In this document: positions 13,972 through 62,418 of the stretch, piece after piece
Numbering within the stretch: position 1 is the stretch's first letter
How the letters are laid out: every line of letters begins with the position of its first letter
Assembly (NCBI GenBank): GCA_963812135.1
Contig: CAWETU010000001.1
Coordinates: forward strand, 512,001 to 576,000
Direction: 5' to 3'
DNA: 64,000 nt
From: Vulcanimicrobiota bacterium
GTDB taxonomy: Bacteria > Vulcanimicrobiota > Vulcanimicrobiia > Eremiobacterales > Eremiobacteraceae
Made by a program: the position numbers and the translations under genes
The notes under the pieces: generated by a model
Seen by the model: only the letters and a program-made list of their open reading frames with translations
Databases searched by the model: none
Told to the model about the DNA's origin: nothing

Positions 13972-14904
13972 CTACGATTTGGCCGGCGCGCTCGCGCCCG
14001 GCGTCTCCGGGTGCACAGCGTGGCCGCCGAACTGATGGCGCAGCGCGGCGACGACTTTGGCCGAGAACGATTCCTCTTGACGCGAGCGGAACCGCGCGAG
14101 CAGCGATTCGGTCAGCACCGGCGCCGGCACCGACAGGTCGATCGCATCGGTGACCGTCCAGCGGCCCTCGCCCGTATCGTCGACATAGCCGCGGATGTCA
14201 GCAAGTTTCGGATCGTCCTTGAACGCAAGCTCCGCGAGCTCGAGCAGCCAGGAGCGCACGACGCTGCCCTGATTCCACAGATGGCTGATCTTCGCGAAAT
14301 CCAAGCCGGGGCCGAACTGCGACGCCTGCATGATCTCGAAGCCCTCGCCGTACGCCTCCAGCATCCCGTACTCGATGCCGTTGTGCACCATTTTGGTGAA
14401 GTGGCCAGCGCCCGCCGGCCCGACTCGCAGATATCCGTCTATCGGCGCGAGCGTCAAAAAGATCGGCTCGAGGCGCTTGCAGGTCGCTTCGGATCCGCCG
14501 ACCATCAGGCAATAGCCCTCTTTGAGACCCCAGATGCCGCCCGACACGCCCGCGTCGATGAAGTCGATTCCCTTTGGCGCGAGATCTTTGGCCTGCTGCT
14601 GGCCGACTTTCCAATACGAGTTGCCGCCATCGATGACGACGTCGCCGCGCTCGAGCAAACCGCCGAGCGCCGCGACCGTGTCATTGGTCGGCGGTCCGGC
14701 GGGCAGCATTACCCAGACGTTGCGCGGCGCGCGAAGCGCTTTGACCACCCCTTCAAGCGAATCCGCGCCCGTCGCTCCGCTTGCGACTGCCGCTTTGATG
14801 GCGTCGGCAGAACGGTCGTAGGCGACGACTTCGTGTCCGCCGAGCAACAAGCGCTCGACCATATTACCGCCCATGCGGCCCAGCCCGATCATCGCGATTT
14901 GCAT
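13972..14904 (-). CDS. gnd: 6-phosphogluconate dehydrogenase, decarboxylating (short type)
   Basis: GLGRMG, IDGGNS, GVSGG, KMVHNGIEYG, FGGH. Confidence 0.95.
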   Translation of the reverse strand: MQIAMIGLGRMGGNMVERLLLGGHEVVAYDRSADAIKAAVASGATGADSLEGVVKALRAPRNVWVMLPAGPPTNDTVAALGGLLERGDVVIDGGNSYWKVGQQQAKDLAPKGIDFIDAGVSGGIWGLKEGYCLMVGGSEATCKRLEPIFLTLAPIDGYLRVGPAGAGHFTKMVHNGIEYGMLEAYGEGFEIMQASQFGPGLDFAKISHLWNQGSVVRSWLLELAELAFKDDPKLADIRGYVDDTGEGRWTVTDAIDLSVPAPVLTESLLARFRSRQEESFSAKVVAALRHQFGGHAVHPETPGASAPAKS

Positions 14905-17720
14905 CAGGCTTTACTCCCCGGCGCGGTGGGCGCCAGCGAATTTGCGACCTTCGAGATGGTGCGTAACAGCGTCGCGAGCGACGCGTCGACGTCGTCGCCG
15001 AGATCGACGCGCACGACGCGCCGCCCATGATCGCGCAGCGACTGCAGATCGCCGAGCGCTTGTGCGGCCGCCAGCGTGGCGAAGTCGAACGGCTGGCCCG
15101 GGATCGGCACGCGCTCCTTGGAGCGGCAGACCAGTTCGATGAACACGCCGGTGTTGGGGCCGCCTTTGTGCAGTTGACCGGTCGAATGCAGGTAACGCGG
15201 TCCATAGCCGAACGTCGTCGCGGCTTTCGTCGAATCGCGCAGCATCGCGCGGATATCGTCGAACGCGTCATCGCGGGCGCGGGTCTCGTGCACGTACGCC
15301 AGCAATGCGAAGTAGTCGCCATCGCGCGCGCCCCGAACGAAGCTCGAGAGCGCGGCTTCGTCGTCGGGCGCGATCGCTTCGGTCTTTGCGGACGCGGCGG
15401 CTGGCTGCGTCAAAATGCGATTGGTGTTGTCCTTGCTCTCTTGGACGTTCGGTTGGTCAAACGCGTCGACGCCCAAAAACGCGCCGACGGTGGCCGTGGC
15501 GAATTCCCAGCGGAAGAACTCCGCGCCGAGATCGAGCGCGTCGCGCATGCTCACCCTGATCACCGGATGGCCGGCGCGCTGCAGCGCGTCGCCGCGCGCG
15601 TCGAGACTGCGGTCGTCGCCCAACCTCAGATGCACGAAGACGCGATCGGCGCCGTACGCGCCGGGATCACCCGGCGGTTCGCCCGCGACCGGGATCAAGC
15701 CGCGGCCCTCTTTGCCGAGGCTCTCGGCGATGAGCTGTTCGAGCCACAACCCGAAACTCGCGATGCCCGGCGACGCGAGCACCGTCACCTTGTCGCGGCC
15801 GTGCTTGAGCGCGAGCGTGGCCAACGCGGCGCCGAGCCGCACCGCTGGATGCTCCGACGCCTTCACACCGCTCGCGCAGGCTTGCACCATGCCGCGCGCG
15901 CGATCGAGCAAGCCCGCGACGTCGACGCCCGCGGCGGCTGCCGGCACGAGTCCGAAATACGTCAGTGCCGAGTAGCGCCCGCCGATGTCCTCCGGATTGA
16001 GGAAGATCTGCCGGAAGCCCCGCTCGCGAGCAAGCGTCTCGAGCGGCGTTCCCGGATCGGTGATGCACGCGAAGCGCGCCGCCGCCTTTTCGCGGCTGCC
16101 GAGCGCGGCCGCGACCTTGTCGAAGAAGTATTCCGAGAAGACGCGCGGCTCCAGGGTCGTGCCCGACTTGCTGGACTCGATGAAGACCGTCGCCTTCACG
16201 TCGATCGCCGCTTCGAACGCACGCACGCTCTCGGGCAGCGTGCTGTCGAGCACGAGCAGTCGCGGGTAGCCTTTGCGCGTGCCGAACGTCTCGCGCAACA
16301 CGATGGGGCACAGACTCGATCCACCCATCCCCATGACGACCACGCTGGTGATGCCGTCCTTGCGCAAGCCCTCGGCGAACGAGTCGAGCTCTTGCGTGCG
16401 GTGATACATGAGATCGGGCGAGTTCAACCAGCCGAGCCGATCTTTGACGATGGCGGCATGTTCTGGGTCGCCCTTTTTCCAGAGATCAGGATCGCGCTGC
16501 CAGAATCGCGCGACGAAGCGCTCGCCTTCCAGGCGCGAGAGAGCATCCGCAAGCTCCGCCGGATCGACGCCCGATGTGGTCAGCCGGTCGGTGGCGCCCT
16601 GAATCGCTTGCGCTTTCTGCGCGAGCACGGCGAGCAGTTGGTCGTATGACGCTTGGAACGATACAAGCCCGTCGGCAAGCAGCTTGTCGGTGATCGACTT
16701 GAGCGAGATGCCAAGCTCTTCGAGCTCGGCCAATGTCTCTTCGGCCTTGTCGATGCCTTGGTCGAGGTTCGGTTTCACGATGCCATGGTCGCGGAACGCA
16801 TCGATCGTCGCCGGCGGCATCGTATCGACGGTGTCAGGTCCGATGAGCGCCTCGACGTAGTACGTGTCTTTGTACTTCGGGTTCTTGGTCGACGTGCTCG
16901 CCCAGAGCGGCCGTTGCCGGCGCGCGCCCGCGGCGGCCAGCGTCCGCCAGCGTTCGCCTTTGATCGAGCGCTGGTAGACCGAGTACAAGCGCTTTGAGTT
17001 GGCGATAGCCGTGGTGCCAAGGTGCGCTTCCAGGCGCGCCGTCGTGGGCGCGTCGGCGTCCTTCATCGCAGCGGCGATGCGCTTGTCGGCCTCCGTATCG
17101 ACGCGGCTGACGAAGCACGACGCCACTGACGCGATGTTGTGCAGCGGCTGGCCCTTGGCGAGCCTGTCTTCCAGGCCGCCCATGAACGCATCGATGACGC
17201 CCTCGTAGTACCCCGCGCCGAACATCAACGTGATGTTGACATTGATGCCGTCGCCGATGAGCCGCCGGATGACCGGCATGCCCTCGGACGTCGCGGGCAC
17301 TTTCACCATGACGTTGGGCCGCGCGACCAGTTTCCACAGGCGATGCGCCTCGACGATCGATGCGTCGCTGTCTTTGGCGAGCTGCGGCGGTAACTCGATC
17401 GAGACGTAGCCGTCGCCGCCCGAGCTCGTGTCGTACAGATCGCGGAAGGAGTCGCATGCCTCGCGGATGTCGGTGGTCGTGAGCGCGTCGTACATCGCCG
17501 ATGGGCTGGCGCCTTCGGCGACGAGCGCCTTGATCTGATCGTCGTAATCAGAGCTCTCGGCGATCGCCTTCTCGAAGATCGTCGGGTTCGACGTCTCGCC
17601 GCGCAGCCCGTCGTCGTCGATCATGCGGCGCAGCTCGCCCGAACGCGTGAATCCGCGTCTGACGTTGTCGAGCCAAAAGCTTTGTCCGAAATCGATGAGG
17701 CGCTGGAGTGGGTTTGGCAT
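14904..17720 (-). CDS. Bifunctional transaldolase/phosphoglucose isomerase
   Basis: N-terminal TSNPTIF, KVPAT, NITLMF, WASTSTK; C-terminal GMGGSSL, SSKSGTTLE, GGRYS, DQPNVQESK, HSTGQLHKGGP. Confidence 0.95.
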   Translation of the reverse strand: MPNPLQRLIDFGQSFWLDNVRRGFTRSGELRRMIDDDGLRGETSNPTIFEKAIAESSDYDDQIKALVAEGASPSAMYDALTTTDIREACDSFRDLYDTSSGGDGYVSIELPPQLAKDSDASIVEAHRLWKLVARPNVMVKVPATSEGMPVIRRLIGDGINVNITLMFGAGYYEGVIDAFMGGLEDRLAKGQPLHNIASVASCFVSRVDTEADKRIAAAMKDADAPTTARLEAHLGTTAIANSKRLYSVYQRSIKGERWRTLAAAGARRQRPLWASTSTKNPKYKDTYYVEALIGPDTVDTMPPATIDAFRDHGIVKPNLDQGIDKAEETLAELEELGISLKSITDKLLADGLVSFQASYDQLLAVLAQKAQAIQGATDRLTTSGVDPAELADALSRLEGERFVARFWQRDPDLWKKGDPEHAAIVKDRLGWLNSPDLMYHRTQELDSFAEGLRKDGITSVVVMGMGGSSLCPIVLRETFGTRKGYPRLLVLDSTLPESVRAFEAAIDVKATVFIESSKSGTTLEPRVFSEYFFDKVAAALGSREKAAARFACITDPGTPLETLARERGFRQIFLNPEDIGGRYSALTYFGLVPAAAAGVDVAGLLDRARGMVQACASGVKASEHPAVRLGAALATLALKHGRDKVTVLASPGIASFGLWLEQLIAESLGKEGRGLIPVAGEPPGDPGAYGADRVFVHLRLGDDRSLDARGDALQRAGHPVIRVSMRDALDLGAEFFRWEFATATVGAFLGVDAFDQPNVQESKDNTNRILTQPAAASAKTEAIAPDDEAALSSFVRGARDGDYFALLAYVHETRARDDAFDDIRAMLRDSTKAATTFGYGPRYLHSTGQLHKGGPNTGVFIELVCRSKERVPIPGQPFDFATLAAAQALGDLQSLRDHGRRVVRVDLGDDVDASLATLLRTISKVANSLAPTAPGSKA

Positions 17721-37299: not shown

Positions 37300-38543
37300 C
37301 CCAGGGTGCGAACGGGTCGTATCTTGCCGCGACGATTTTCTTTTTGATCGCCGCCGCGCTCATCATCGCGCAATGCGTGATGATCCTAAGCCTGCGTCGC
37401 CGGGTCATTCGAGCCGAACGCCGCTTCGAGACGCTGCAACAAATCGCGCCCGCGCTCACGGGTGCCGCAGCTGAATCCACGCTTGCCACGTGCGGTCGCA
37501 TCTTAGAGCGAACCTCGCTGCTCGTGCACGCTCAATCATTGTTGTGCTTCTACGTCGAGAATTCTCGTCTGATGCTCGGCGCGCGCTCGGGTTCCGGCTA
37601 CGTCGGCTTCTTGCGCGAGGGCGAAGCCTACGACGGCAATACCATTGCCGACTGGGTGCGACGCGAAGGCAAGCCCGCGATCGTGGGCCCGCGGCCAAGT
37701 TCGCTACCGGCTGAATCCGGCGTCTATGATCTCTCTGGAGAGTCAGCGGCCGGGCGTATCGGCGCGGGGCCGATTGCCGGCAGCCGCGACACGGTGTGGG
37801 GTGTCGCGGTGCCGTTGATGCGAATGGCAGCGCCAAATGAACGCGCGGAGGTCATCGGAGTGCTCTATGCCGATAGGCCTCGCGACGACGCATTTGCCGA
37901 AGACGACGTGAGCACGCTGTTGACCGTCGCGCAGCTCGCGGGTGACGCGCTCGCACGAGCGCTGTTCGCCGACCGCGTTCGCCATGAAGCGACGCGCGAT
38001 CCGCTCACTGGGCTGCTGACACCCGTCGGGTTTCGGAAGCGATTACGCCAGGAAGTCGACGCGCGCCGCGTCGAGACGCGGGTCGCGGCAACGCGCGACG
38101 TCGCTTTGTTCTTCATCGACACCGACCATTTCAAGACTTGGAACGACACGCATGGGCACGCGTCGGGTGACCAATTATTGCGCCGTCTCGCAGCTATGTT
38201 TTCAAAAATCGCGGAGCAGGCGCACGGGTTCGCCGGTCGCAACGGCGGCGATGAATTCTGCATCGCGCTCTTGGACCGGAGCAAAGACGCGTCGATCAAG
38301 CTCGCGCAAGATCTTTGCGCTCAGGTGGCCGATGCGGATTTCCGCGCACTTGCGCCAAACGCCGATTCGCCTGGTGTGCATATCACAGTCAGCATCGGCG
38401 TGGCGCATTTTCCGATGGACATTTCGCCTGACGAACGCCAACCAACGGATCGTCTGCTCGAAGCAGCAGACCAGCGGATGTATGAGGCCAAACACGCTGG
38501 CCGCAATCAAGTCGCGTTTTCGCGCGCACGTCTGCGAGCGTAG
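37296..38543 (+). CDS. Membrane-anchored GAF-GGDEF diguanylate cyclase
   Basis: N-terminal TM, GAF-like VPL..VIGVLYAD, DPLTGL, DHFK..NDTHGH..GD, GRNGGDEF. Confidence 0.9.
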   Translation: MTQGANGSYLAATIFFLIAAALIIAQCVMILSLRRRVIRAERRFETLQQIAPALTGAAAESTLATCGRILERTSLLVHAQSLLCFYVENSRLMLGARSGSGYVGFLREGEAYDGNTIADWVRREGKPAIVGPRPSSLPAESGVYDLSGESAAGRIGAGPIAGSRDTVWGVAVPLMRMAAPNERAEVIGVLYADRPRDDAFAEDDVSTLLTVAQLAGDALARALFADRVRHEATRDPLTGLLTPVGFRKRLRQEVDARRVETRVAATRDVALFFIDTDHFKTWNDTHGHASGDQLLRRLAAMFSKIAEQAHGFAGRNGGDEFCIALLDRSKDASIKLAQDLCAQVADADFRALAPNADSPGVHITVSIGVAHFPMDISPDERQPTDRLLEAADQRMYEAKHAGRNQVAFSRARLRA

Positions 38544-38546
38544 AAA

Positions 38547-39068
38547 ATGATCAAATACTTCGCAGCGGTGATCGCCTTCATTTGCATAATGGCTGCTTCA
38601 AGTGCCGCAAAGGCGCTCGCTATCGAAGACCAATCCGCTGGAGACACAATCGGCCCGTTGGTGAACAATCTAGCGGTCTCCGCGAAACTCGACCAGCAAG
38701 TGGTCGATATAGGCGCGCCGGTTGTCGTGACCATTGCTCTTAAGAACTTCGGGCCCCCGATATGCCTTTCACGACTTAATGCGTTTATCGACTACGCTTT
38801 GGCAGGTACTGGTCCGGACAGGTCTCCTATCGCAAGAACCCATGAGCCCGGATTCAGCGGAAGTGTTCCGTCATGCTGGAATATTGGGACGGGCGACGCC
38901 TTACAAACCACAAGGGATCTGAGCAAATTATTTGATTTCAGCATGCCCGGCCGATACACGTTCTGGTTCCAAACCACCGCGCATTTGGAATATCAATGGG
39001 ACGATGCGTATGCGATCTTGCGATCCAATACGGTAGTTCTCGACGTGAAATATCCGTGGACGTTCTAA
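38547..39068 (+). CDS. Secreted hypothetical protein (Ig-like fold)
   Basis: Signal peptide; GAPVVVTIALKN...DLSKLFDFSMPGRYT...SNTVVLDV; visibly AT-richer codons. Confidence 0.6.
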   Translation: MIKYFAAVIAFICIMAASSAAKALAIEDQSAGDTIGPLVNNLAVSAKLDQQVVDIGAPVVVTIALKNFGPPICLSRLNAFIDYALAGTGPDRSPIARTHEPGFSGSVPSCWNIGTGDALQTTRDLSKLFDFSMPGRYTFWFQTTAHLEYQWDDAYAILRSNTVVLDVKYPWTF

Positions 39069-39078
39069 AGCTCGGTGA

Positions 39079-39507
39079 TTGGTCACATTTGACCGGGAAG
39101 CTACCGTTCGCGCACACGCCGCGATGCAGCGCGGTGGCGCCGATGACTGCGGCTGTAATTCTTGCCGAAACTTCTCGCTCCAAAAGCCGGTGGCTTATCC
39201 GGCTGAGTTCTTGCAGGTGCTCGAGCGGCTGGGTGTCGATCCAACTCGAGAGATCGAAGTCTATTCTTTTGACCGCGAAGATGCACTCGGACAAGAGTAC
39301 CATGGTTGGTTTTACTTTGTCGGCCTCGCAAAGTGCGACGCGGTTGCGGTAGAAGAAGGCGCTTTCACATATTATTTCATGGAGGGGCCCGCATATGCAG
39401 TCCCTGAGTTCGAAGGGCTGCCGGTTTCGCGCGTAGAGTTTGCTTACTTACATTTGCCATGGGCAAACGGTATCACAGCCACAACTCCACCAATCCAAAG
39501 CGAGTAG
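39079..39507 (+). CDS. Hypothetical protein with CxCxxC motif
   Basis: DREAT...CGCNSCRNF...LGVDP...YHGWFYFVG; start codon uncertain. Confidence 0.65.
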   Translation: MVTFDREATVRAHAAMQRGGADDCGCNSCRNFSLQKPVAYPAEFLQVLERLGVDPTREIEVYSFDREDALGQEYHGWFYFVGLAKCDAVAVEEGAFTYYFMEGPAYAVPEFEGLPVSRVEFAYLHLPWANGITATTPPIQSE

Positions 39508-39518
39508 GCGCGAAGAAC

Positions 39519-39546
39519 GCGGCCCCTCGGAGTCTCGAGGGGCCGC
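39519..39546. terminator. GC-rich hairpin between convergent genes
   Basis: GCGGCCCCTCG-GAGTCT-CGAGGGGCCGC, 11-bp perfect stem; weak U tails. Confidence 0.6.
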
Positions 39547-39571
39547 ACTTGCCGCTAGCGGGTGATGGAAT

Positions 39572-40048
39572 CTAGCCCTTGATGCCGATGCGCTCGGCTT
39601 TGGGCACTTTCGGTGCCGGTATCATGACCTTCAGGATACCGTACTCGTATTCGGCCTCGACCTTCTTCGGATCGATCGGCTCTGGGAAGCTCAGAGTGCG
39701 TAGGAACTCGCCACGCTGACGTTCGCGGTAGATGTACTGCGGGCGATTTTCTTTCACCAGCTCTTCGCTATGAGCCGTGATCGTAAGCGCTTTACCGCTG
39801 GCCTGGATCTCGATGTTCTCCTTTTTCACTCCAGGGAGCGCGCACTCCACCACATACGTCCCGTCTTTCTGGTAGACGTCGAGGTCGAAGCTGAACGTAG
39901 GCGTGCGAAATGCTGTTTGCGCTGCGGGTAGCCAGCTGAAAAGCGGTTTGAAGCCTTCTCCAAGCCGGGTGAACTCCGCAAATGGGTCAATCGTTTGCAT
40001 TTTTTGCAGTTCGGTCGAACCATTCTCGCCATTAATCATGGTCTTCAT
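39572..40048 (-). CDS. Hsp20/alpha-crystallin small heat shock protein
   Basis: SD AAGGAGG; LDVYQ, LPGVKKENIEI, RERQRGEFLRTL, AEYEYGILKV. Confidence 0.92.
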   Translation of the reverse strand: MKTMINGENGSTELQKMQTIDPFAEFTRLGEGFKPLFSWLPAAQTAFRTPTFSFDLDVYQKDGTYVVECALPGVKKENIEIQASGKALTITAHSEELVKENRPQYIYRERQRGEFLRTLSFPEPIDPKKVEAEYEYGILKVMIPAPKVPKAERIGIKG

Positions 40049-40133
40049 GATGGTTCCCTCCTTGCGTTGTTCCGGCCATATCCGGAACTTGACCCAAGCG
40101 TACGCCCGCCGTCGCACCGTAGTTGTGAAAATG

Positions 40134-40628
40134 CTACAGCGAATTGCGACTTTCGGCGCGCTCGATCCGGAAATCATAGCAGCCAGCTTCAGTGTCGCGC
40201 ACATGGATGTAGTCCACATCCGGCCGCGCTAGCAGTCGCTCCACATGAGCGTCGATCGCCCCATTCGTGCCGTACGCTTGTGCGACAAGCCGTCGACCAC
40301 TGCTGTACGCGTTGAAGGTCAATTCGTGTGCGCGCAGGTCCGAAGGGAAGCCCGCCGTTTCCGGGTAGCGCTCGCAGGCACGCGAATGCACGAACACGGG
40401 ACCCGGCAACGGTAGGCGCTCGAGATCCGTAAACGGATCGTACGTGAAGAGGACGCGCGGCTCAGCGCCGACTACGAACTCGCGTAGGCAGTGCCGGCAC
40501 GGTCCGTACCCCTTCGCGACTTCTTCCGAGGCCGGATGGTCGTAGCGCGGCGAGCGCATCGTCGCGCGCACCGTTTCGACGACGTCTGTCGGAATCGCCA
40601 CCACGCGAACACCAAGATTCTCCATCAT
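40134..40628 (-). CDS. DUF1203 family protein
   Basis: GPCRHCL, YDPF, GPVFVH...C, RPDVDYIHVR...GCY; SD GGAGG; ATGA overlap with upstream ORF. Confidence 0.85.
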   Translation of the reverse strand: MMENLGVRVVAIPTDVVETVRATMRSPRYDHPASEEVAKGYGPCRHCLREFVVGAEPRVLFTYDPFTDLERLPLPGPVFVHSRACERYPETAGFPSDLRAHELTFNAYSSGRRLVAQAYGTNGAIDAHVERLLARPDVDYIHVRDTEAGCYDFRIERAESRNSL

Positions 40629-40816
40629 CCAAGCCCTCCGAGCAACAACTGGCCGGCGGCGACGAGCGCTCGCCCGAGACGCGTGCGCCAACGTACGAGC
40701 GCCGACGTCGTGTGATGTCGTTGCGCGCGCATCTTCGCGCCGAGCCGATGTCGCGCGATCTCTGCGCTCATCGCTTCATGCTGCTGCCTGACGAGATCCA
40801 ACACATAGCGCTCCAT
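40625..40816 (-). CDS. 63-aa Arg-rich microprotein B (paralog of 40870-41088)
   Basis: Ungapped alignment to its neighbour, 24/60 identical; stop coupled to DUF1203. Confidence 0.7.
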   Translation of the reverse strand: MERYVLDLVRQQHEAMSAEIARHRLGAKMRAQRHHTTSALVRWRTRLGRALVAAGQLLLGGLG

Positions 40817-40869
40817 CGCTGCACACGACTGTATGATAGCCTGCGGCCGCGCTGCGGTTCTATCCGTTT

Positions 40870-41088
40870 TTACCGCAGCGCGTTCGCAGACTCGGACGCG
40901 CGTTCGTCACCCTCGATCACCCGACCGACACCGATGACGATGCGCCCCAAGGCGCGTCGCCAACGAGCGGCGACGCTTGGTCCTGACACGCGCCGTGCAC
41001 GCAATGCGATGCCCAGACGATGGCGCACGATCTCTTCGCGCACCTCATCCTGCCGCTCGCGTACGGCTCGCAACCAATCCCGATCCAT
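40870..41088 (-). CDS. 72-aa Arg-rich microprotein A
   Basis: Strong SD GGAGGTG; shares EI.RHRLG...RWR..LGR motif with paralog B. Confidence 0.75.
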   Translation of the reverse strand: MDRDWLRAVRERQDEVREEIVRHRLGIALRARRVSGPSVAARWRRALGRIVIGVGRVIEGDERASESANALR

Positions 41089-41121
41089 GTTCTCACCTCC
41101 CCTCTTGCCAGCGCGAGAGAG

Positions 41122-41160
41122 ATAAAACAACGAGGCCCCCGCTTAGTGCGGAGGCCTCGT
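41122..41160 (-). terminator. Intrinsic terminator (attenuator)
   Basis: ACGAGGCCTCCGC-ACTAA-GCGGGGGCCTCGT then TGTTTTAT. Confidence 0.85.
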
Positions 41161-41187
41161 CGGCATCGATTGGGTCTTGCGACCCGC

Positions 41188-41319
41188 TCACACACCGTTA
41201 AGCACATCTCCGCACGGAACGACGCTCTTCACGCTCGCATCGAGTGCAAGCGTGGCGCACAGCTGCGCGATCCCCAGCGGGGTCGCGTTCACTGTCAGCA
41301 GCGTCGTCATGTTGCTCAA
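41188..41319 (-). CDS. 43-aa putative leader peptide
   Basis: SD AAGGAG, 7 nt, TTG; MSNMTTLLTVNATPLGIAQLCATLALDASVKSVVPCGDVLNGV; lies between promoter and terminator. Confidence 0.6.
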   Translation of the reverse strand: MSNMTTLLTVNATPLGIAQLCATLALDASVKSVVPCGDVLNGV

Positions 41320-41378
41320 AAAATGTCTCCTTTGCTGTTTTTGCCGAACAAAATTCGGCGGCCACAACACAGATTGCC

Positions 41379-41407
41379 ATGGTAACACGCCTTTGCGAGG
41401 TTGTCAA
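41379..41407 (-). promoter_or_regulatory. Sigma70 promoter of leader peptide unit
   Basis: TTGACA-17 nt-TACCAT with extended -10 TG. Confidence 0.8.
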
Positions 41408-41433
41408 ACCCGCGCGCACGAAGCCGCGCGATT

Positions 41434-44400
41434 ATGCGCCGATTATTTGATGCAATCATAATGTCTGTCGTCGTGCTCAGCGTCGCTGTCCCGGTCTTAG
41501 CGGACACACAACCGTACGCCAATCTGAAATGGCGCGCGATCGGGCCGGCGCTCTCCGGCGGACGTGCCGCAGCGGTCGCTGGCACGGATGCTGATCCGCT
41601 TCTTTACTATGCGGGAGCGGCCGGCGGCGGCATCTGGCGTTCCGACGATGCGGGCTCGACATGGACCGCGGTCTACGAAGACTTGCCCGTCAACGCGATC
41701 GGCGCGATCGCGATCGCGCCATCAAACAAGCGCGTCGTCTGGGTCGGCACCGGCGAATCCAATCCGCGCAACGACATCTCGTGGGGCGATGGCGTCTGGG
41801 TCAGCACAAACGGCGGCTCTTCATGGCAGCACCGCGGTTTGGAAGCGACCGCGCACATCTCCAAGATACTCGTCGATCCGCACAATCCCAACATCGCGCT
41901 GGTCGGTGCATTGGGCGACATCTTCAAAGACAGCGAGGAGCGCGGTGTTTTCCGGACGGTTGATGGCGGCAAGACCTGGACGAAGACGCTGTACGTCGGT
42001 CCGAGCAGCGGCGCATCGGATCTATCGTGGGATCCAAGCCATCCGAACATCGTCTACGCAGGCGTCTGGCAGATCCGCCGCTTGCCCTGGTCGCTGGAGA
42101 GCGGCGGGCCCGCTGGCGGCGTGTATCGCTCGAGCGACAGTGGACAGACGTGGACCAAATTGTCGGGCAACGGATTGCCGTCGGGTGACACCGGCCGCAT
42201 CGGCGTCGCGGTCGCGCCCAATCATCCGAATCGCGTCTACGCGCTCATCCAATCAAAAGAGGGCGTGCTGTGGCGCTCGGACGACGGGGGCAATCAGTGG
42301 CGGCTCGTCAGCTCGAACACGCTGCTCAACCAGCGGCCGTTCTATTTCAGCCGGCTGGTCGTCGATCCGACGAATCCCGATCATTTCATCGCGCTCTCCG
42401 AGTACATGGCTGAAAGCCGCGATGGCGGGCGGACGGCGAAGAAGATCGCGAAAGCCATCCATGTCGACAATCACGACGCATGGTGGTCGCGCGACGGCCG
42501 GCGGCTGATCGATGCGAACGATGGCGGCGTCGCATGGTCGATGGACGGCGCGAAGACGTGGAGTGCGGCCTCTAATATGCCGATCGGGCAGATCTATAAG
42601 CTTGGCTACGATGAGCAGGTGCCGTATCACGTCTGCGGCGGCCTGCAGGACAACACGACTTTCTGCGGCCCGTCCAACAGTAACGACGCGGGTGGCATCC
42701 TCAATCGCGACTGGATCAGCGTCAACGGCGGTGACGGCAACTTCGTCTGGCCGGATCCACTGGACCCACAGCTGGTGTGGAACGCGACGGAGAACGGCAC
42801 GGTCTCTATCTTCGATATGCGCTCCAAACAGAACGTCGATGTGGAGCCGTACCCGCGCGACTTCAACGGCATGGCGATCGAAGGCGTCAAATATCGTTGG
42901 AATTGGACGACGCCGATAACATTCTCGCCGCAAGACCCGCACATCGCGTATGTGGGCGCAAACGTCGTGTTCAAATCAACGGACCGCGGCCGCCACTGGA
43001 CCCCGATCAGTCCGGATCTCACGCTCAACGACAAGGCGCATCAGCAGATCTCGGGCGGCCCGATCAATCCCGACGTCTCGGGCGCCGAGGTCTACGACAC
43101 GGTGACCGAAATATCGCCGTCACCGGTGCAAGCCGGCCTCATCTGGGTCGGTACCGACGACGGCCTGATCCAATTGACGAGCGACGGGGGAGACCACTGG
43201 AAGAACGTCACGATGTCCGGCCTTGCTCCCTACGGCTTCGTGCAGAGTATTGATCCGTCGACGCATGCGGCGGGCACCGCATACGTCGCGATCGACCGGC
43301 ACACGATGGGAGACCGCGCGCCGTACGCATTCGTGACCGACGACTACGGCGCTTCGTGGCGATCGATCGCGGCGAACCTGCCGGCGGACCAACCGGTGCG
43401 TGCATTGCGGCAAGATCCGCGCAACGCGAATATCCTGTATGCAGGAACCGAGCAAGGCATTTGGATCTCTTTCGATCGCGGCACATCGTGGCAGTCGATC
43501 AAGTTGAATCTGCCGACCGCCTCGGTGCGCGATATCCGCGTGCACCCAGTCGCCAATGATCTCATCATCGCGACGCACGGGCGCTCGATGTTCATCCTCG
43601 ATGACCTTGCGCCGTTGCAAGACCTCCAGCCGGCACAAACCGCCGGAACGTATCTGTTCCAGCCGCGAACCGCGTATCTGTGGTGGCAGTGGACGAGCGA
43701 AGACCTGCAAGACAGCACGGTACCCGCGAACGAGTTCGCCGGCGACAATCCCGACGTCGGCGTGATGGTCTCGTTCTATCTCGCCAAACCGGCGCCAAAG
43801 CGCCCGACGATCGATGTGCTGGACAGCAGCGGACATCTCGTGCGCCGCCTCACCGGTACGCATCTCGTGAGCGACAAGCCCGAGTATTACGTCACCAACA
43901 AATCGGGCGTCAACCGCCTCACCTGGAACTTGACCGAAACTGGACCGGTCAAGCGCCTGAGCGCGCCCGCGAAGTATCAAGGATCGGACGACGGCGCAGT
44001 CGTCGTACCAGGCACGTATACGATCGTGTTGCGAGCGAATGGCCGAACTCTAAGCCGCAGCATCAAAGTCGTGGCCGATCCACGTTCGCCCTGGTCGCAA
44101 GCGGATTACATCGAGCGCTATCATTTCGACGTCGAGCTCAACAACGAGTTGTCACAGATCGATACGGCGCTCAACTCGATCGACGCGATCAGGCGACAGA
44201 TCAACGCTGCGCTCAAACCGCTGCGTGCAGCGGCGACGCCATCACCGGTCGTCACGCAAGGCGACGCGCTGCTCGCGCGGCTGAGCGCGCTCGAGTCGGA
44301 GATGACGTCGAACCCCCACAACGACGAAGACAGCATCCTGTACGCGGATAAGGTGCGCGAACGGATCCTTGCACTCCAAGGGAACCTCAGCGAGTCGCAG

Positions 44401-60102: not shown

Positions 60103-61143
60103 GTGCGCGTACTGATCGTCGGCGCCGGCGCGATCGGACGTTTCATGGCCGCGCGGTTGAAACTCGCGGGCCATGACGCGGTGCTGCTCGCACGGCCTGA
60201 CGGGGCGGCGCAACTCGCAGCGGGTTTCACCTTCGCGGCCGACGGCAAGCAATACAGCGTCACGGCGCCGGTCGCCACGGCTCCAGACGACGTGGCGTTG
60301 CGCGACCCCTTTGAACTCGCCGCGATGGCGGTAAAGTCGTTCTCGACGCCGGGCGCGATCGAGTCGATTCGCGCGATCCCCACGTGCGAGCGCGCGACGA
60401 TACTGACGCTGCAAAACGGCATCGGCAACGAAGAGCTTTGCGCGGCAGCATTCGGAGACGAGCGCGTCGTCGCGGGCGCGCTCACCACAGCTGTCGAAAA
60501 GGCCGCCGACGGCAGCATCGTCGCATCGAGCAAGGGCGGCCTGAGCATCGCTCCGCTCGGCAAGCTCCCGCACAACTGGCTTCTCGCCGTCTTTGAGAAC
60601 AGCGCGATCAAAGTCGCTGCAGCGCCAGATTGGCGCGCGCTGAAGTGGTCGAAGCTCTGCATCAATCTGCAGGCCAACGCCGTCTGCGCGGTTCTCGACT
60701 GGACGCCCGAGCAAGTCTATGCCGACAAGACGGCGTTCTCGATCGAGCGACGCTGCCTGCTCGAAGCCTTTGCGGTGATGACCAAACTCGGCATCACGCC
60801 GATCGCACTGATCGATTTTCCGGTGCCGCTGCTTCTCGCCGCTGCCCGAACGCTGCCCGAAGCGGTGCTGCGCCCAGTGCTTGCATCGCGCGTCGCCAAA
60901 GCGCGAGGCGGGAAGCTGCCCTCACTGCTCATCGACGCGCGGGCGCATCGCCCACGTACGGAAGTCGACGTGCTGAATGGCGCGGTCGCCGAACGCGCTG
61001 CCGCTGCGGGTGTCGCCGCGCCGGCGAACGCTGCGGTGGCGCGGATTCTGAATGGCATCACTGGCGGCTCGATCGATTGGGATACGTATCGCGGGAAACC
61101 CGCGGCGCTCGTCGCGGAGATCGACGGGGCGCATCCTCGTTAG
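60103..61143 (+). CDS. panE: Ketopantoate reductase family protein
   Basis: GAGAIG, AVKS, LQNGIG, KWSKL..N, TEVDVLNG. Confidence 0.85.
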   Translation: MRVLIVGAGAIGRFMAARLKLAGHDAVLLARPDGAAQLAAGFTFAADGKQYSVTAPVATAPDDVALRDPFELAAMAVKSFSTPGAIESIRAIPTCERATILTLQNGIGNEELCAAAFGDERVVAGALTTAVEKAADGSIVASSKGGLSIAPLGKLPHNWLLAVFENSAIKVAAAPDWRALKWSKLCINLQANAVCAVLDWTPEQVYADKTAFSIERRCLLEAFAVMTKLGITPIALIDFPVPLLLAAARTLPEAVLRPVLASRVAKARGGKLPSLLIDARAHRPRTEVDVLNGAVAERAAAAGVAAPANAAVARILNGITGGSIDWDTYRGKPAALVAEIDGAHPR

Positions 61144-62333
61144 CTCGCGCGCAGACGCTGAGCGCCTGTCGGGCAGCGTGTTGAGAGCGCGCATGCGCCG
61201 CATTGCGGCTCCGGATTGCAGGGTCCGAGCGCCGCGAACAACGCAAGCAGTCCTTCAACTGCATATGGATCGCGCAGCAACGCCTCGGCAACCGACCCGA
61301 CGAGCAGTTGGCCTGTCGCAGGAGTGGCCGTTGCGTCGATCAGACCGAGACGCTCGATCACGCGCCGAGACCCTGGGTTTCCAAACGCGGTGAAGAATCC
61401 CCAGCGCTTGAGGGTCTGACGCCCTGCGGTTTCATTAATGCGCGCGAAATCTGCCGCCAGAGCGGCGGTCAGCGCCGGCCAGCCTTCGGCCGGGGCATCG
61501 GCGGCGGCGATGCATGCGATGCGCGCAAGGTAACTGCCTTCGGATTTGGCGACATCGCTCCAGCGTTGCGCGTTTTCGATGCACCCGCGGATCTTCGATT
61601 CGTTGCGGATGATCGGCGAGCCGAGCAAACGTCGCACGTCCGCCTCTCCATACGACGCCACCGTCGCGGGAGTGAAGCCTTCGAACGCGGCGGCGAGCGC
61701 CGCGCGCTTGCGGATGACGATCGCGTGCCCGAGCCCCTGCGCGAAGATCACCTCGCATAACCGGGCGAATGCGCACGCATCGTCGGCGGGCGCGTCATGA
61801 TCGGCGACATACCGGCGCAAGCGCGCCGCGCACTCATCCGCCCCGAGTAACGCGTCCACGACCAGGTCGACGGCGCGCACGAGCGACGCTCCAGCGCGCG
61901 CGACTGCCTTTGCGCCCTTGCGGCGAGGCGCGCGACTCGGCGCCGCACTTGAGGGTTTGACTGGGGTTTGGTTCGACATGTCAGGGACCTCCACGAATGC
62001 CGCACGCATGCGCGCGATGAGCGCGCGCCACGTACCAATCCTCGACAACGGCACCGGCGCGACGCGCATCGCGGGGCACCAGCGAACGCACACGCCTTCG
62101 AGACCGCGCGCTGCGAGCGCGATAAAGCGGCGGGCGAATGCCCGCACGGCATCGGACCGCCGCGCGAGAATCAGAGCGCGCGCCCCGCACGGCACGACGC
62201 AGGCGTCAACTACCACGACGCCGGCAGCCGTGGCCGCCGGCGTGAGTGCGTTGCGCGCGGCCTGAGCGCGAGCGCCTGAGAGCGCGAAGCGCAACCGCTC
62301 GGTGTCGAGGACGATGAACCAGAGCCGATCCAC
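61140..62333 (-). CDS. Inactive IS200-TnpA-like domain fused to Tag-like DNA glycosylase with C-terminal Fe-S motif (alternative internal start 61979)
   Basis: Tag-like AFEGFTPATVASYGEADVRRLL..IIRNESKIRGCIENA; C-x5-C-x2-C-x5-C; N-terminal 118 aa align with Y1 transposase consensus. Tag part is high confidence, the fusion moderate. Confidence 0.7.
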   Translation of the reverse strand: MDRLWFIVLDTERLRFALSGARAQAARNALTPAATAAGVVVVDACVVPCGARALILARRSDAVRAFARRFIALAARGLEGVCVRWCPAMRVAPVPLSRIGTWRALIARMRAAFVEVPDMSNQTPVKPSSAAPSRAPRRKGAKAVARAGASLVRAVDLVVDALLGADECAARLRRYVADHDAPADDACAFARLCEVIFAQGLGHAIVIRKRAALAAAFEGFTPATVASYGEADVRRLLGSPIIRNESKIRGCIENAQRWSDVAKSEGSYLARIACIAAADAPAEGWPALTAALAADFARINETAGRQTLKRWGFFTAFGNPGSRRVIERLGLIDATATPATGQLLVGSVAEALLRDPYAVEGLLALFAALGPCNPEPQCGACALSTRCPTGAQRLRAS

Positions 62334-62418
62334 GCGCGCTTCCTTATCACGCGGGTCAGCTCAGCGGTCAAGCGGTCGGAAAACGCGAACGCAACGTCAG
62401 GATAAGAAAAACAACAAC

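Follow-up and report, generated by a model that had tools for sequence, protein, structure and literature searches.

On the minus strand of the DNA examined here, a short leader probably acts as a translation-stress attenuator of the whiB7/wblC type, placed before the gene of an Arg-rich microprotein (A); a second microprotein (B) and a DUF1203 protein appear to have a separate promoter. The window, the whole 64,000-nt stretch of Vulcanimicrobiota DNA that was analysed, carries all leader elements and the three genes on that one strand. In the proposed mechanism, a strong constitutive promoter would produce a leader of ~250 nt, in whose nascent RNA an antiterminator would form by default, so that read-through is the default state. 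A ribosome that had started at the TTG of an open reading frame placed upstream (uORF) and stood anywhere from about codon 32 to the stop would cover the antiterminator strand, the terminator would form and transcription would end. Were the ribosome absent, late or stalled earlier (by an antibiotic, an uncharged tRNA or damaged mRNA), polymerase would read through into microprotein A. The folded body of the uORF probably shields the switch and slows the ribosome, and B and DUF1203 would depend on a separate, activator-dependent promoter, perhaps with added read-through.

Conservation was assessed from three DNA sequences of one family and two informative peptides (P0012 and P0026). Close relatives of microprotein A number 14, and those with a name come from Ca. 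Eremiobacteraceae or Eremiobacteraeota in the phylum Vulcanimicrobiota. With an 11-sequence alignment as query, a genome scan gave matches in 137 stretches, among which two homologous loci were confirmed: L001, in a Vulcanimicrobiota MAG, and L002 (DASRXC010000118.1), which bears the label Ca. Binatus. The two share synteny with the window, their flanks being 68–79% identical to it; because of this synteny and the ~70% identity to Eremiobacteraceae DNA, the L002 contig is probably misbinned. The promoter, Shine–Dalgarno sequence (SD), TTG start, a uORF of 39–43 codons, the 8-nt antiterminator and the terminator are kept in all three loci, and no variation occurs in the promoter hexamers, AGGAGA, the U-run with the TTG, the octamer of the antiterminator, the arms of the terminator or the SD of A. 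In P0012 the N-terminus is mis-extended and represents the translation of a fourth terminator region, which is close to that of the window. No second copy of the leader was found within the window, comparison of the leader DNA with plasmids and with phages gave one weak chance match each, and the window had no Rfam match at the gathering score (riboswitch, T-box or other families), with eight weak, unrelated sub-threshold matches at E up to 10.

The surroundings differ among the loci. A VOC/glyoxalase gene follows DUF1203 in L001 (5108–5497) and L002 (4903–5298), and hsp20 (40048–39572) stands at that place in the window, with a perfect 7-bp inverted repeat and a loose match to the CGG-box pattern discussed below upstream of it (40090–40068, minus). 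Between a GGDEF gene and hsp20, two ORFs of 173 and 142 aa without a family match occupy 38547–39507 (plus) of the window; L001 is without an insert in this region and L002 has a DUF4760 gene. Elsewhere in the window, a transaldolase fused to a phosphoglucose-isomerase-like domain, a fusion already known, lies within a pentose-phosphate gene cluster (14904–17720, minus).

The leader elements named in the original prediction were all recovered in place on the minus strand. The predicted promoter (41379–41407) comprises TTGACA (41407–41402), a 17-nt spacer and TACCAT (41384–41379); it is of housekeeping type, with 10 of 12 consensus matches and a TG extension, both hexamers are invariant in L001 and L002, and it is the better of two promoter-like sites in 38000–44000, where shuffles give 1.8. 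Transcription would start near 41372, followed by a hairpin, GCCGAA/TTCGGC (41343–41359), with four of its six pairs invariant and two broken in one locus, which probably guards the 5′ end of the transcript. The SD, AAGGAG (41332–41327), is separated by a U-rich spacer from the TTG start (41317–41332 in all, AGGAGA being invariant), with a spacing of 7–9 nt, and the SD/start region folds as a weak hairpin of –2.7 to –4.2 kcal/mol. The uORF (41188–41319) has 43 codons in the window, and 40 and 39 in the homologs. The GGGTC-GCAA-GACCC hairpin (41172–41185) caps a longer stem that the antiterminator encloses; it shows one compensatory change from G-C to A-U and is possibly an RNA-polymerase pause hairpin. 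The intrinsic terminator (41122–41162, stem 41162–41128) consists of 15 pairs and a U-tract, spans –27 to –31 kcal/mol across the loci and is the longest of nine terminator-like sites (shuffles 4.9); its presence and place had been correctly foreseen, and its length, given before as 13 bp, becomes 15 pairs when G-U is counted. Folded as a whole, the window leader has z = –6.9, which none of 200 shuffles equals.

Central to the switch is the antiterminator 5′ strand, GTGCGGAG (41208–41215), which is indeed the exact 8-nt complement of the terminator 5′ arm and loop (41215–41208 against 41153–41146). The octamer taken alone is no more than suggestive, since 185 of 5000 leader shuffles (3.7%) contain a complement of at least 8 nt to the terminator 5′ arm. 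In the homologs the antiterminator comprises 9–11 contiguous bp with extra pairs into the terminator arm. All eight octamer pairs are invariant, and outside the terminator no invariant run exceeds the octamer in length, in an alignment with 154 of 269 columns invariant; by our own arithmetic from these columns, the chance of this is ~1% for a site named in advance. Its first base is the invariant third position of a codon that itself varies (P/S/L). In all three loci a uORF with a ribosome-binding site precedes an intrinsic terminator, and the antiterminator, which is computed to be exclusive of the terminator, overlaps the uORF's 3′ end; it is invariant, not covarying.

Switching was modelled by thermodynamic folding of transcripts ending just past the terminator loop, with a simulated ribosome. 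Without a ribosome, the probability of the antiterminator in the nascent leader was 0.99, 0.96 and 1.0 in the three loci. It remained at least 0.92 in the window for sampled P-site codons 1–31; simulated stalls before about codon 31 leave the antiterminator formed, in agreement with the proposal that a stall upstream of the PCG codons would correspond to the ON state. From codon 31–32 to the stop it was ~0 in both homologs (12-nt footprint; for L001, at the positions listed), and when the upstream footprint was set to 15 nt, some of the early stalls in L001 also came out as OFF, the first at codon 8–10. The window differs at its 3′ end: relative to three homologous peptides its uORF carries a 1-nt deletion near 41206, right after the octamer, its C-terminus reads CGDVLNGV where L001, L002 and P0026 have CGGCV, and its stop is displaced 10 nt beyond the homologous stop, the TAA of which is kept at 41200–41198 in another frame. 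With a ribosome at this displaced stop, the antiterminator probability was 0.99, 0.56, 0.12 and 0 for upstream footprints of 12, 15, 16 and 18 nt. The deletion is possibly a recent change, or possibly a sequence or assembly error, and might make the switch leakier. At full-length equilibrium the antiterminator probability is 0 in all three loci and the terminator wins, so the switch would have to be kinetic, operating co-transcriptionally. An anti-antiterminator, formed by pairing of the SD spacer with the antiterminator, appeared in the full-length window fold and was set aside, not being dominant on the nascent transcript in any locus.

The dominance of the terminator at equilibrium, together with the strong predicted promoter, the 5′ hairpin, the strength of the terminator and the z of –6.9, would also suit a stand-alone structured sRNA of ~250 nt, from which microprotein A is made only by leaky read-through. 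We regard this as most unlikely, because it leaves unexplained both the invariance of the complement to the terminator's loop and arm and a conserved, promoterless gene A with a strong SD; a secondary role in trans of the released leader RNA is compatible with attenuation and could exist beside it. Attenuation by a ribosome-dependent switch of whiB7 type, as originally proposed, is in turn supported by the retention of SD, start, frame, stop geometry and antiterminator in all three loci.

Across the loci the uORF keeps its frame over 37 codons, with a single 3-nt deletion in L002, and variable columns are distributed over its codon positions as 13/16/14 (35 each, three loci), whereas the first codons of microprotein A in the same three genomes give 9/8/19. 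Only 13 residues and the start are invariant in the first 37 codons, many of them at paired RNA positions, and the +2 frame is likewise open in all three loci. The idea of a meaningful leader peptide finds no support in this comparison, and the PCGD of the window becomes SCGG and LCGG in the homologs. Nor was the leader ORF wholly unannotated, as had been thought: its 40-aa form is a public predicted protein (P0016). Searches with the uORF peptide returned only the window's own ORF, a three-sequence profile added one homolog, and there was no atlas match. An in-frame fusion of leader and A was ruled out, the open frames differing between loci.

An amino-acid-specific leader peptide (Thr, Ala or branched-chain) resembling the thr and ilv attenuators is very unlikely. 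Codons 2–31 do hold 5–6 Thr and 4–5 Ala per locus, with Thr clustered early, and the whiB7 uORF also senses amino acids through its composition, according to the available part of PMC10274678. Against this, no tandem run of one codon type was found, which bears out the earlier observation that no single-amino-acid run is present, little of the peptide is invariant, and the genes downstream are not for amino-acid biosynthesis; the conserved Cys lies within the antiterminator, so that a stall there would be OFF.

The RNA of the uORF tells a different story from its peptide. A three-way junction (41219–41308), made of a closing helix, a long arm and a hairpin at 41254–41230, lies inside the uORF and shows compensatory changes. 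Its core is found in all three loci (z of –4.4, –2.4 and –3.0). In the window, the uORF core has z = –5.1 and the uORF z = –3.2, surpassed by only 3 of 160 sampled 132-nt windows, two of which represent the hairpin after microprotein A. Covariation, which had been recommended as a check on homologs, was found as double-sided changes at 5 of the 62 pairs of the read-through structure, a count reached by 10 of 500 shuffles; the antiterminator pairs never vary and so contribute none. Slid-alignment controls brought the read-through structure down to 29–47% paired. Because the structure was derived from those same three sequences, the covariation lends moderate support. In an insulation test, the native antiterminator probabilities of 0.96–1.0 compared with values below 0.5 for 14, 30 and 7 of 60 shuffled uORF bodies, which is suggestive only. 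Taken together, a peptide without coding signature and a covarying RNA argue for a generic stalling sensor over an amino-acid leader, and point to the RNA structure, rather than the peptide sequence, as what matters.

The same two observations would also fit an untranslated, ligand- or protein-binding riboswitch-like element in which the junction is an aptamer and the ORF incidental. Pairing of the SD with the U-run over the start, a start that is a weak TTG within a hairpin, and the ease with which frames of uORF length stay open at 65% GC (as the +2 frame does) fit such an element too. Its closing helix, however, is clear of the antiterminator and so offers no switching strand, the junction bases are not conserved, no Rfam family is matched at the gathering score, and the SD, the start, the frame-keeping indel and the stop position are all kept, so we consider this explanation unlikely and retain ribosome-dependent attenuation as the preferred reading.

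The gene immediately behind the terminator encodes microprotein A (40870–41088, ATG at 41088), an Arg-rich protein of 72 aa with a strong SD, two predicted helices and no family match. No -10-like hexamer (TAnnnT) occurs between the terminator and A in any of the three loci, so microprotein A appears dependent on read-through. Microprotein B (40625–40816, 63 aa) is a paralog, 42% identical over 45 aa; L001 has a B-type gene and L002 has none. A profile search with A against 1.84 billion representatives gave 10 matches, nine of them small proteins of like pattern; P0025 (1647 aa), a repeat match, was removed from the family. None of the 18 A/B family members reaches a Pfam cut-off or matches DUF1127 in Pfam, and searches of NCBIfam, PHROGs and PDB sequences with A returned nothing credible. 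The notion that A is RbpA- or DUF1127-like found no support in the sequence searches. A is predicted to fold into two plain helices (pLDDT 72), for which Foldseek gave 0 matches and VIA-align only generic helices (best Z 5.9, uninformative), and a predicted complex with B. subtilis SigA scored 0.01, which carries no weight either way. In the window, A ends in ESANALR and runs into an arm of the hairpin that follows (40900–40870, compared with L001 4200–4260), and most homologs end in SLPCN; it looks as if a short deletion took out an older stop. The hallmarks of WhiB7 are a four-Cys cluster and an AT-hook. Microprotein A has no four-Cys cluster, no AT-hook-like motif and no WhiB match; it contains no Cys in the window, and its close homologs have one at the C-terminus at most.

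Downstream of A the original picture of a single attenuated operon needs revision. At the end of the gene lies a long hairpin of 19–27 pairs (40838–40892; z –4.3 to –6.9); its stability is greater on the sense strand, where G-U pairs contribute, and it has no U-tract. In its loop is the box of a conserved motif that we predict to be an internal promoter, AAAn-CGGATAGA-N19/20-TATCAT (40833–40870). Five copies of the motif occur in 160,768 strand-bases, all within the unit of microprotein A/B and DUF1203: one in the window, before B, and two each in L001 and L002, where the second copy lies outside hairpins and 6 nt before the DUF1203 ATG, so that a leaderless DUF1203 mRNA would be expected in these two loci. 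DUF1203 itself (40134–40625, 163 aa) starts in overlap with the stop of B in the window. The claim that the attenuator governs the whole operon therefore fits microprotein A and is not supported for B and DUF1203, which at sequence level have the conserved putative promoter ahead of them, the very arrangement that had been named as speaking against operon-wide control. Since the hairpin after A has no U-tract, some read-through into B and DUF1203 may still occur.

The internal promoter is probably activator-dependent, and two kinds of activator come into question. WblC target promoters, as given in the available part of PMC7157823, consist of a TKGMNN -35 element, GAAAWY 3 bp before it and a spacer of 16–19. 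The internal sites match the GAAAWY hexamer exactly in one of five cases and at 5/6 bases in the other four, with the 3-nt gap, a spacer of 17–18, a good -10 and a weak -35 in which position 2 is mismatched at all five. This fairly good fit to WblC geometry, and a layout in which an attenuated small basic protein lies near an activated promoter as in whiB7, would allow A to activate the internal promoter as an analog of WhiB7 outside the WhiB family, through which the attenuator would control B and DUF1203 indirectly. We hold this to be improbable: besides the missing WhiB features, searches of Pfam, NCBIfam and PDB sequences give A no match to WhiB, RbpA or DUF1127; three spacer bases that may vary in WblC sites are fixed here, and they match a CGG box found at DUF1203 in phyla where no A homolog was seen; and the leader promoter is without the site, so that whiB7-like feedback would be lacking.

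The invariant CGG suggests the other kind. The site of Cada2, the Caulobacter activator of the methylation-damage response, consists of GCAA, an AT-rich spacer and CGG (available part of PMC10957082), and that of E. coli Ada of AAT-N6-GCAA (available part of PMC3788762). All five Eremiobacteraceae internal sites have the Cada2 X-box CGG behind an AT-rich spacer; at the place of the B-box GCAA they have GGTA, CGAG, GATG, TGCG and GACA, with near matches elsewhere at other spacings, and for this reason they are not classed as Cada2 sites. The invariant CGG and the lack of WhiB features in A nonetheless favour an Ada/Cada2-like reading over A as activator, and we put at about even chances that the predicted internal promoter is of the Ada/Cada2 methylation-damage type, with a putative regulator. 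Among 54 window ORFs scanned, none encodes an Ada-, AraC- or Cada2-type regulator. In a more novel reading, A may be the founder of a group of small activators that take the part of WhiB7 without its chemistry and, once induced by the stall attenuator, turn on AAAn-CGGATAGA promoters (B, DUF1203, VOC); more boldly, the stall sensor may be tied to the methylation-damage response, with alkylated mRNA as natural trigger and DUF1203 as alkylation defence. We judge this reading unlikely.

DUF1203 promoters outside the family bear on the methylation-damage reading. The comparison covered DUF1203 starts from 6 of 10 records and 3 of 17 Bacillus records, and ogt starts from four actinobacterial records of 60 listed (364 matched); 21 gene starts were examined, and the box patterns were derived after the sequences had been seen. 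All six non-actinobacterial DUF1203 starts (Sinorhizobium, Shinella, Hymenobacter and three near-identical Bacillus copies) have an AT-rich tetramer and CGG upstream, separated by 24–25 nt from an xAxxxT hexamer; in most of them GCAA, or a variant differing by one base, stands ahead. The same geometry occurs at all five Eremiobacteraceae sites and loosely at hsp20 of the window, and is absent at both VOC starts, the leader and all seven actinobacterial starts; the background of the loose pattern is 0.06 per 150 nt in the window. All three actinobacterial DUF1203 starts have at exactly -49 a related box in the opposite orientation, shared with two of the four ogt starts and absent from the other two and from both VOC starts. 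Related boxes are thereby present at DUF1203 promoters of four other phyla. Boxes lie at 2420–2489 in L003, 2428–2501 in L004 and 1436–1501 in L012, at -49 from the start in L005, L006, L011, L007 and L009, and at -98 in L013–L015. In Hymenobacter, DUF1203 sits after a split AraC and O6-methylguanine methyltransferase gene. Subject to the post hoc derivation of the patterns, DUF1203 looks like a member of methylation-damage regulons and may be an unrecognised alkylation-response protein.

In S. meliloti (L004, 1–4747) the DUF1203 gene is flanked on one side by alanyl-tRNA editing, sseA and GNAT genes, and on the other by a convergent alanine dehydrogenase gene and its Lrp regulator. The window also has a methyladenine glycosylase-like gene with a long N-terminal extension (61140–62333, minus), and a 9-nt partial match to the actinobacterial box at 62385–62377, at another distance from the start, which is probably due to chance. 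The predicted model of DUF1203 has a pLDDT of 39 (three-sequence alignment), and a PDB sequence search gave no credible relative. The text supplements of PMC10957082, in the part available, do not mention DUF1203, and a literature search with subscription journals mostly outside its range found DUF1203 (PF06718, IPR009593) only in an incidental table mention.

The attenuator itself has close parallels. In thr, ilv and trp leaders, the position of the ribosome selects terminator or antiterminator. ABC-F leaders such as Listeria rli53/lmo0919 follow the same logic, as described in the available part of PMC11550727. Compared with both groups, the leader described here lacks a run of regulatory codons, its ORF is longer, neither resistance nor biosynthesis genes lie downstream of it, and its untranslated state is computed to be ON. 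It is nearer to whiB7/wblC of Mycobacterium and Streptomyces, with which it shares a long variable uORF, a Rho-independent terminator, a small basic protein as first gene and an antiterminator formed, here by computation, under poor or missing translation (PMC10274678 and PMC11550727, as far as available); loss of the whiB7 uORF start codon raises expression, according to the accessible text of PMC10274678, with like logic in that of PMC11550727. It differs in the phylum (Vulcanimicrobiota, also Eremiobacterota), in a target that is not WhiB, in a leader promoter without an autoregulatory site, in a uORF body that is a covarying three-way junction, and in composition, Ala making up 25–40% of whiB7 uORFs and 4–5 of the first 30 codons here. 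In S. meliloti duf1127-1, a uORF controls a tetracycline-induced, Arg-rich small protein (available part of PMC12218461). That system likewise senses the state of translation ahead of a small Arg-rich protein, with a uORF ribosome-binding site able to pair with downstream sequence; as described there it is Rho-dependent, without an intrinsic terminator switch, and A has no DUF1127 match. The internal promoter resembles Cada2/Ada promoters in its AT-rich spacer with CGG, good -10 and poor -35 (available parts of PMC10957082 and PMC3788762), and its CGG-to-(-10) distance equals that of DUF1203 promoters with GCAA-N4-CGG; it differs in lacking GCAA at the B-box, in an invariant ATAGA after the CGG and in that no regulator gene was found nearby.

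A literature search for attenuation in Eremiobacterota or Vulcanimicrobiota had neither name among the matches listed. The mechanism is of a known kind; what is new is the phylum of the host, the structure in the uORF body and the microprotein that is the target. If the reading is correct, generic translation-stress sensing in the style of whiB7 extends to the Vulcanimicrobiota (Eremiobacterota), from which there is little cultured material, and is tied to a microprotein family without known function. Genes behind such sensors usually encode ribosome-rescue, resistance or regulatory factors, which makes A a well-motivated target. The promoter boxes of DUF1203, which link it to methylation-damage regulons in several phyla, offer a separate testable lead that may be equally important.
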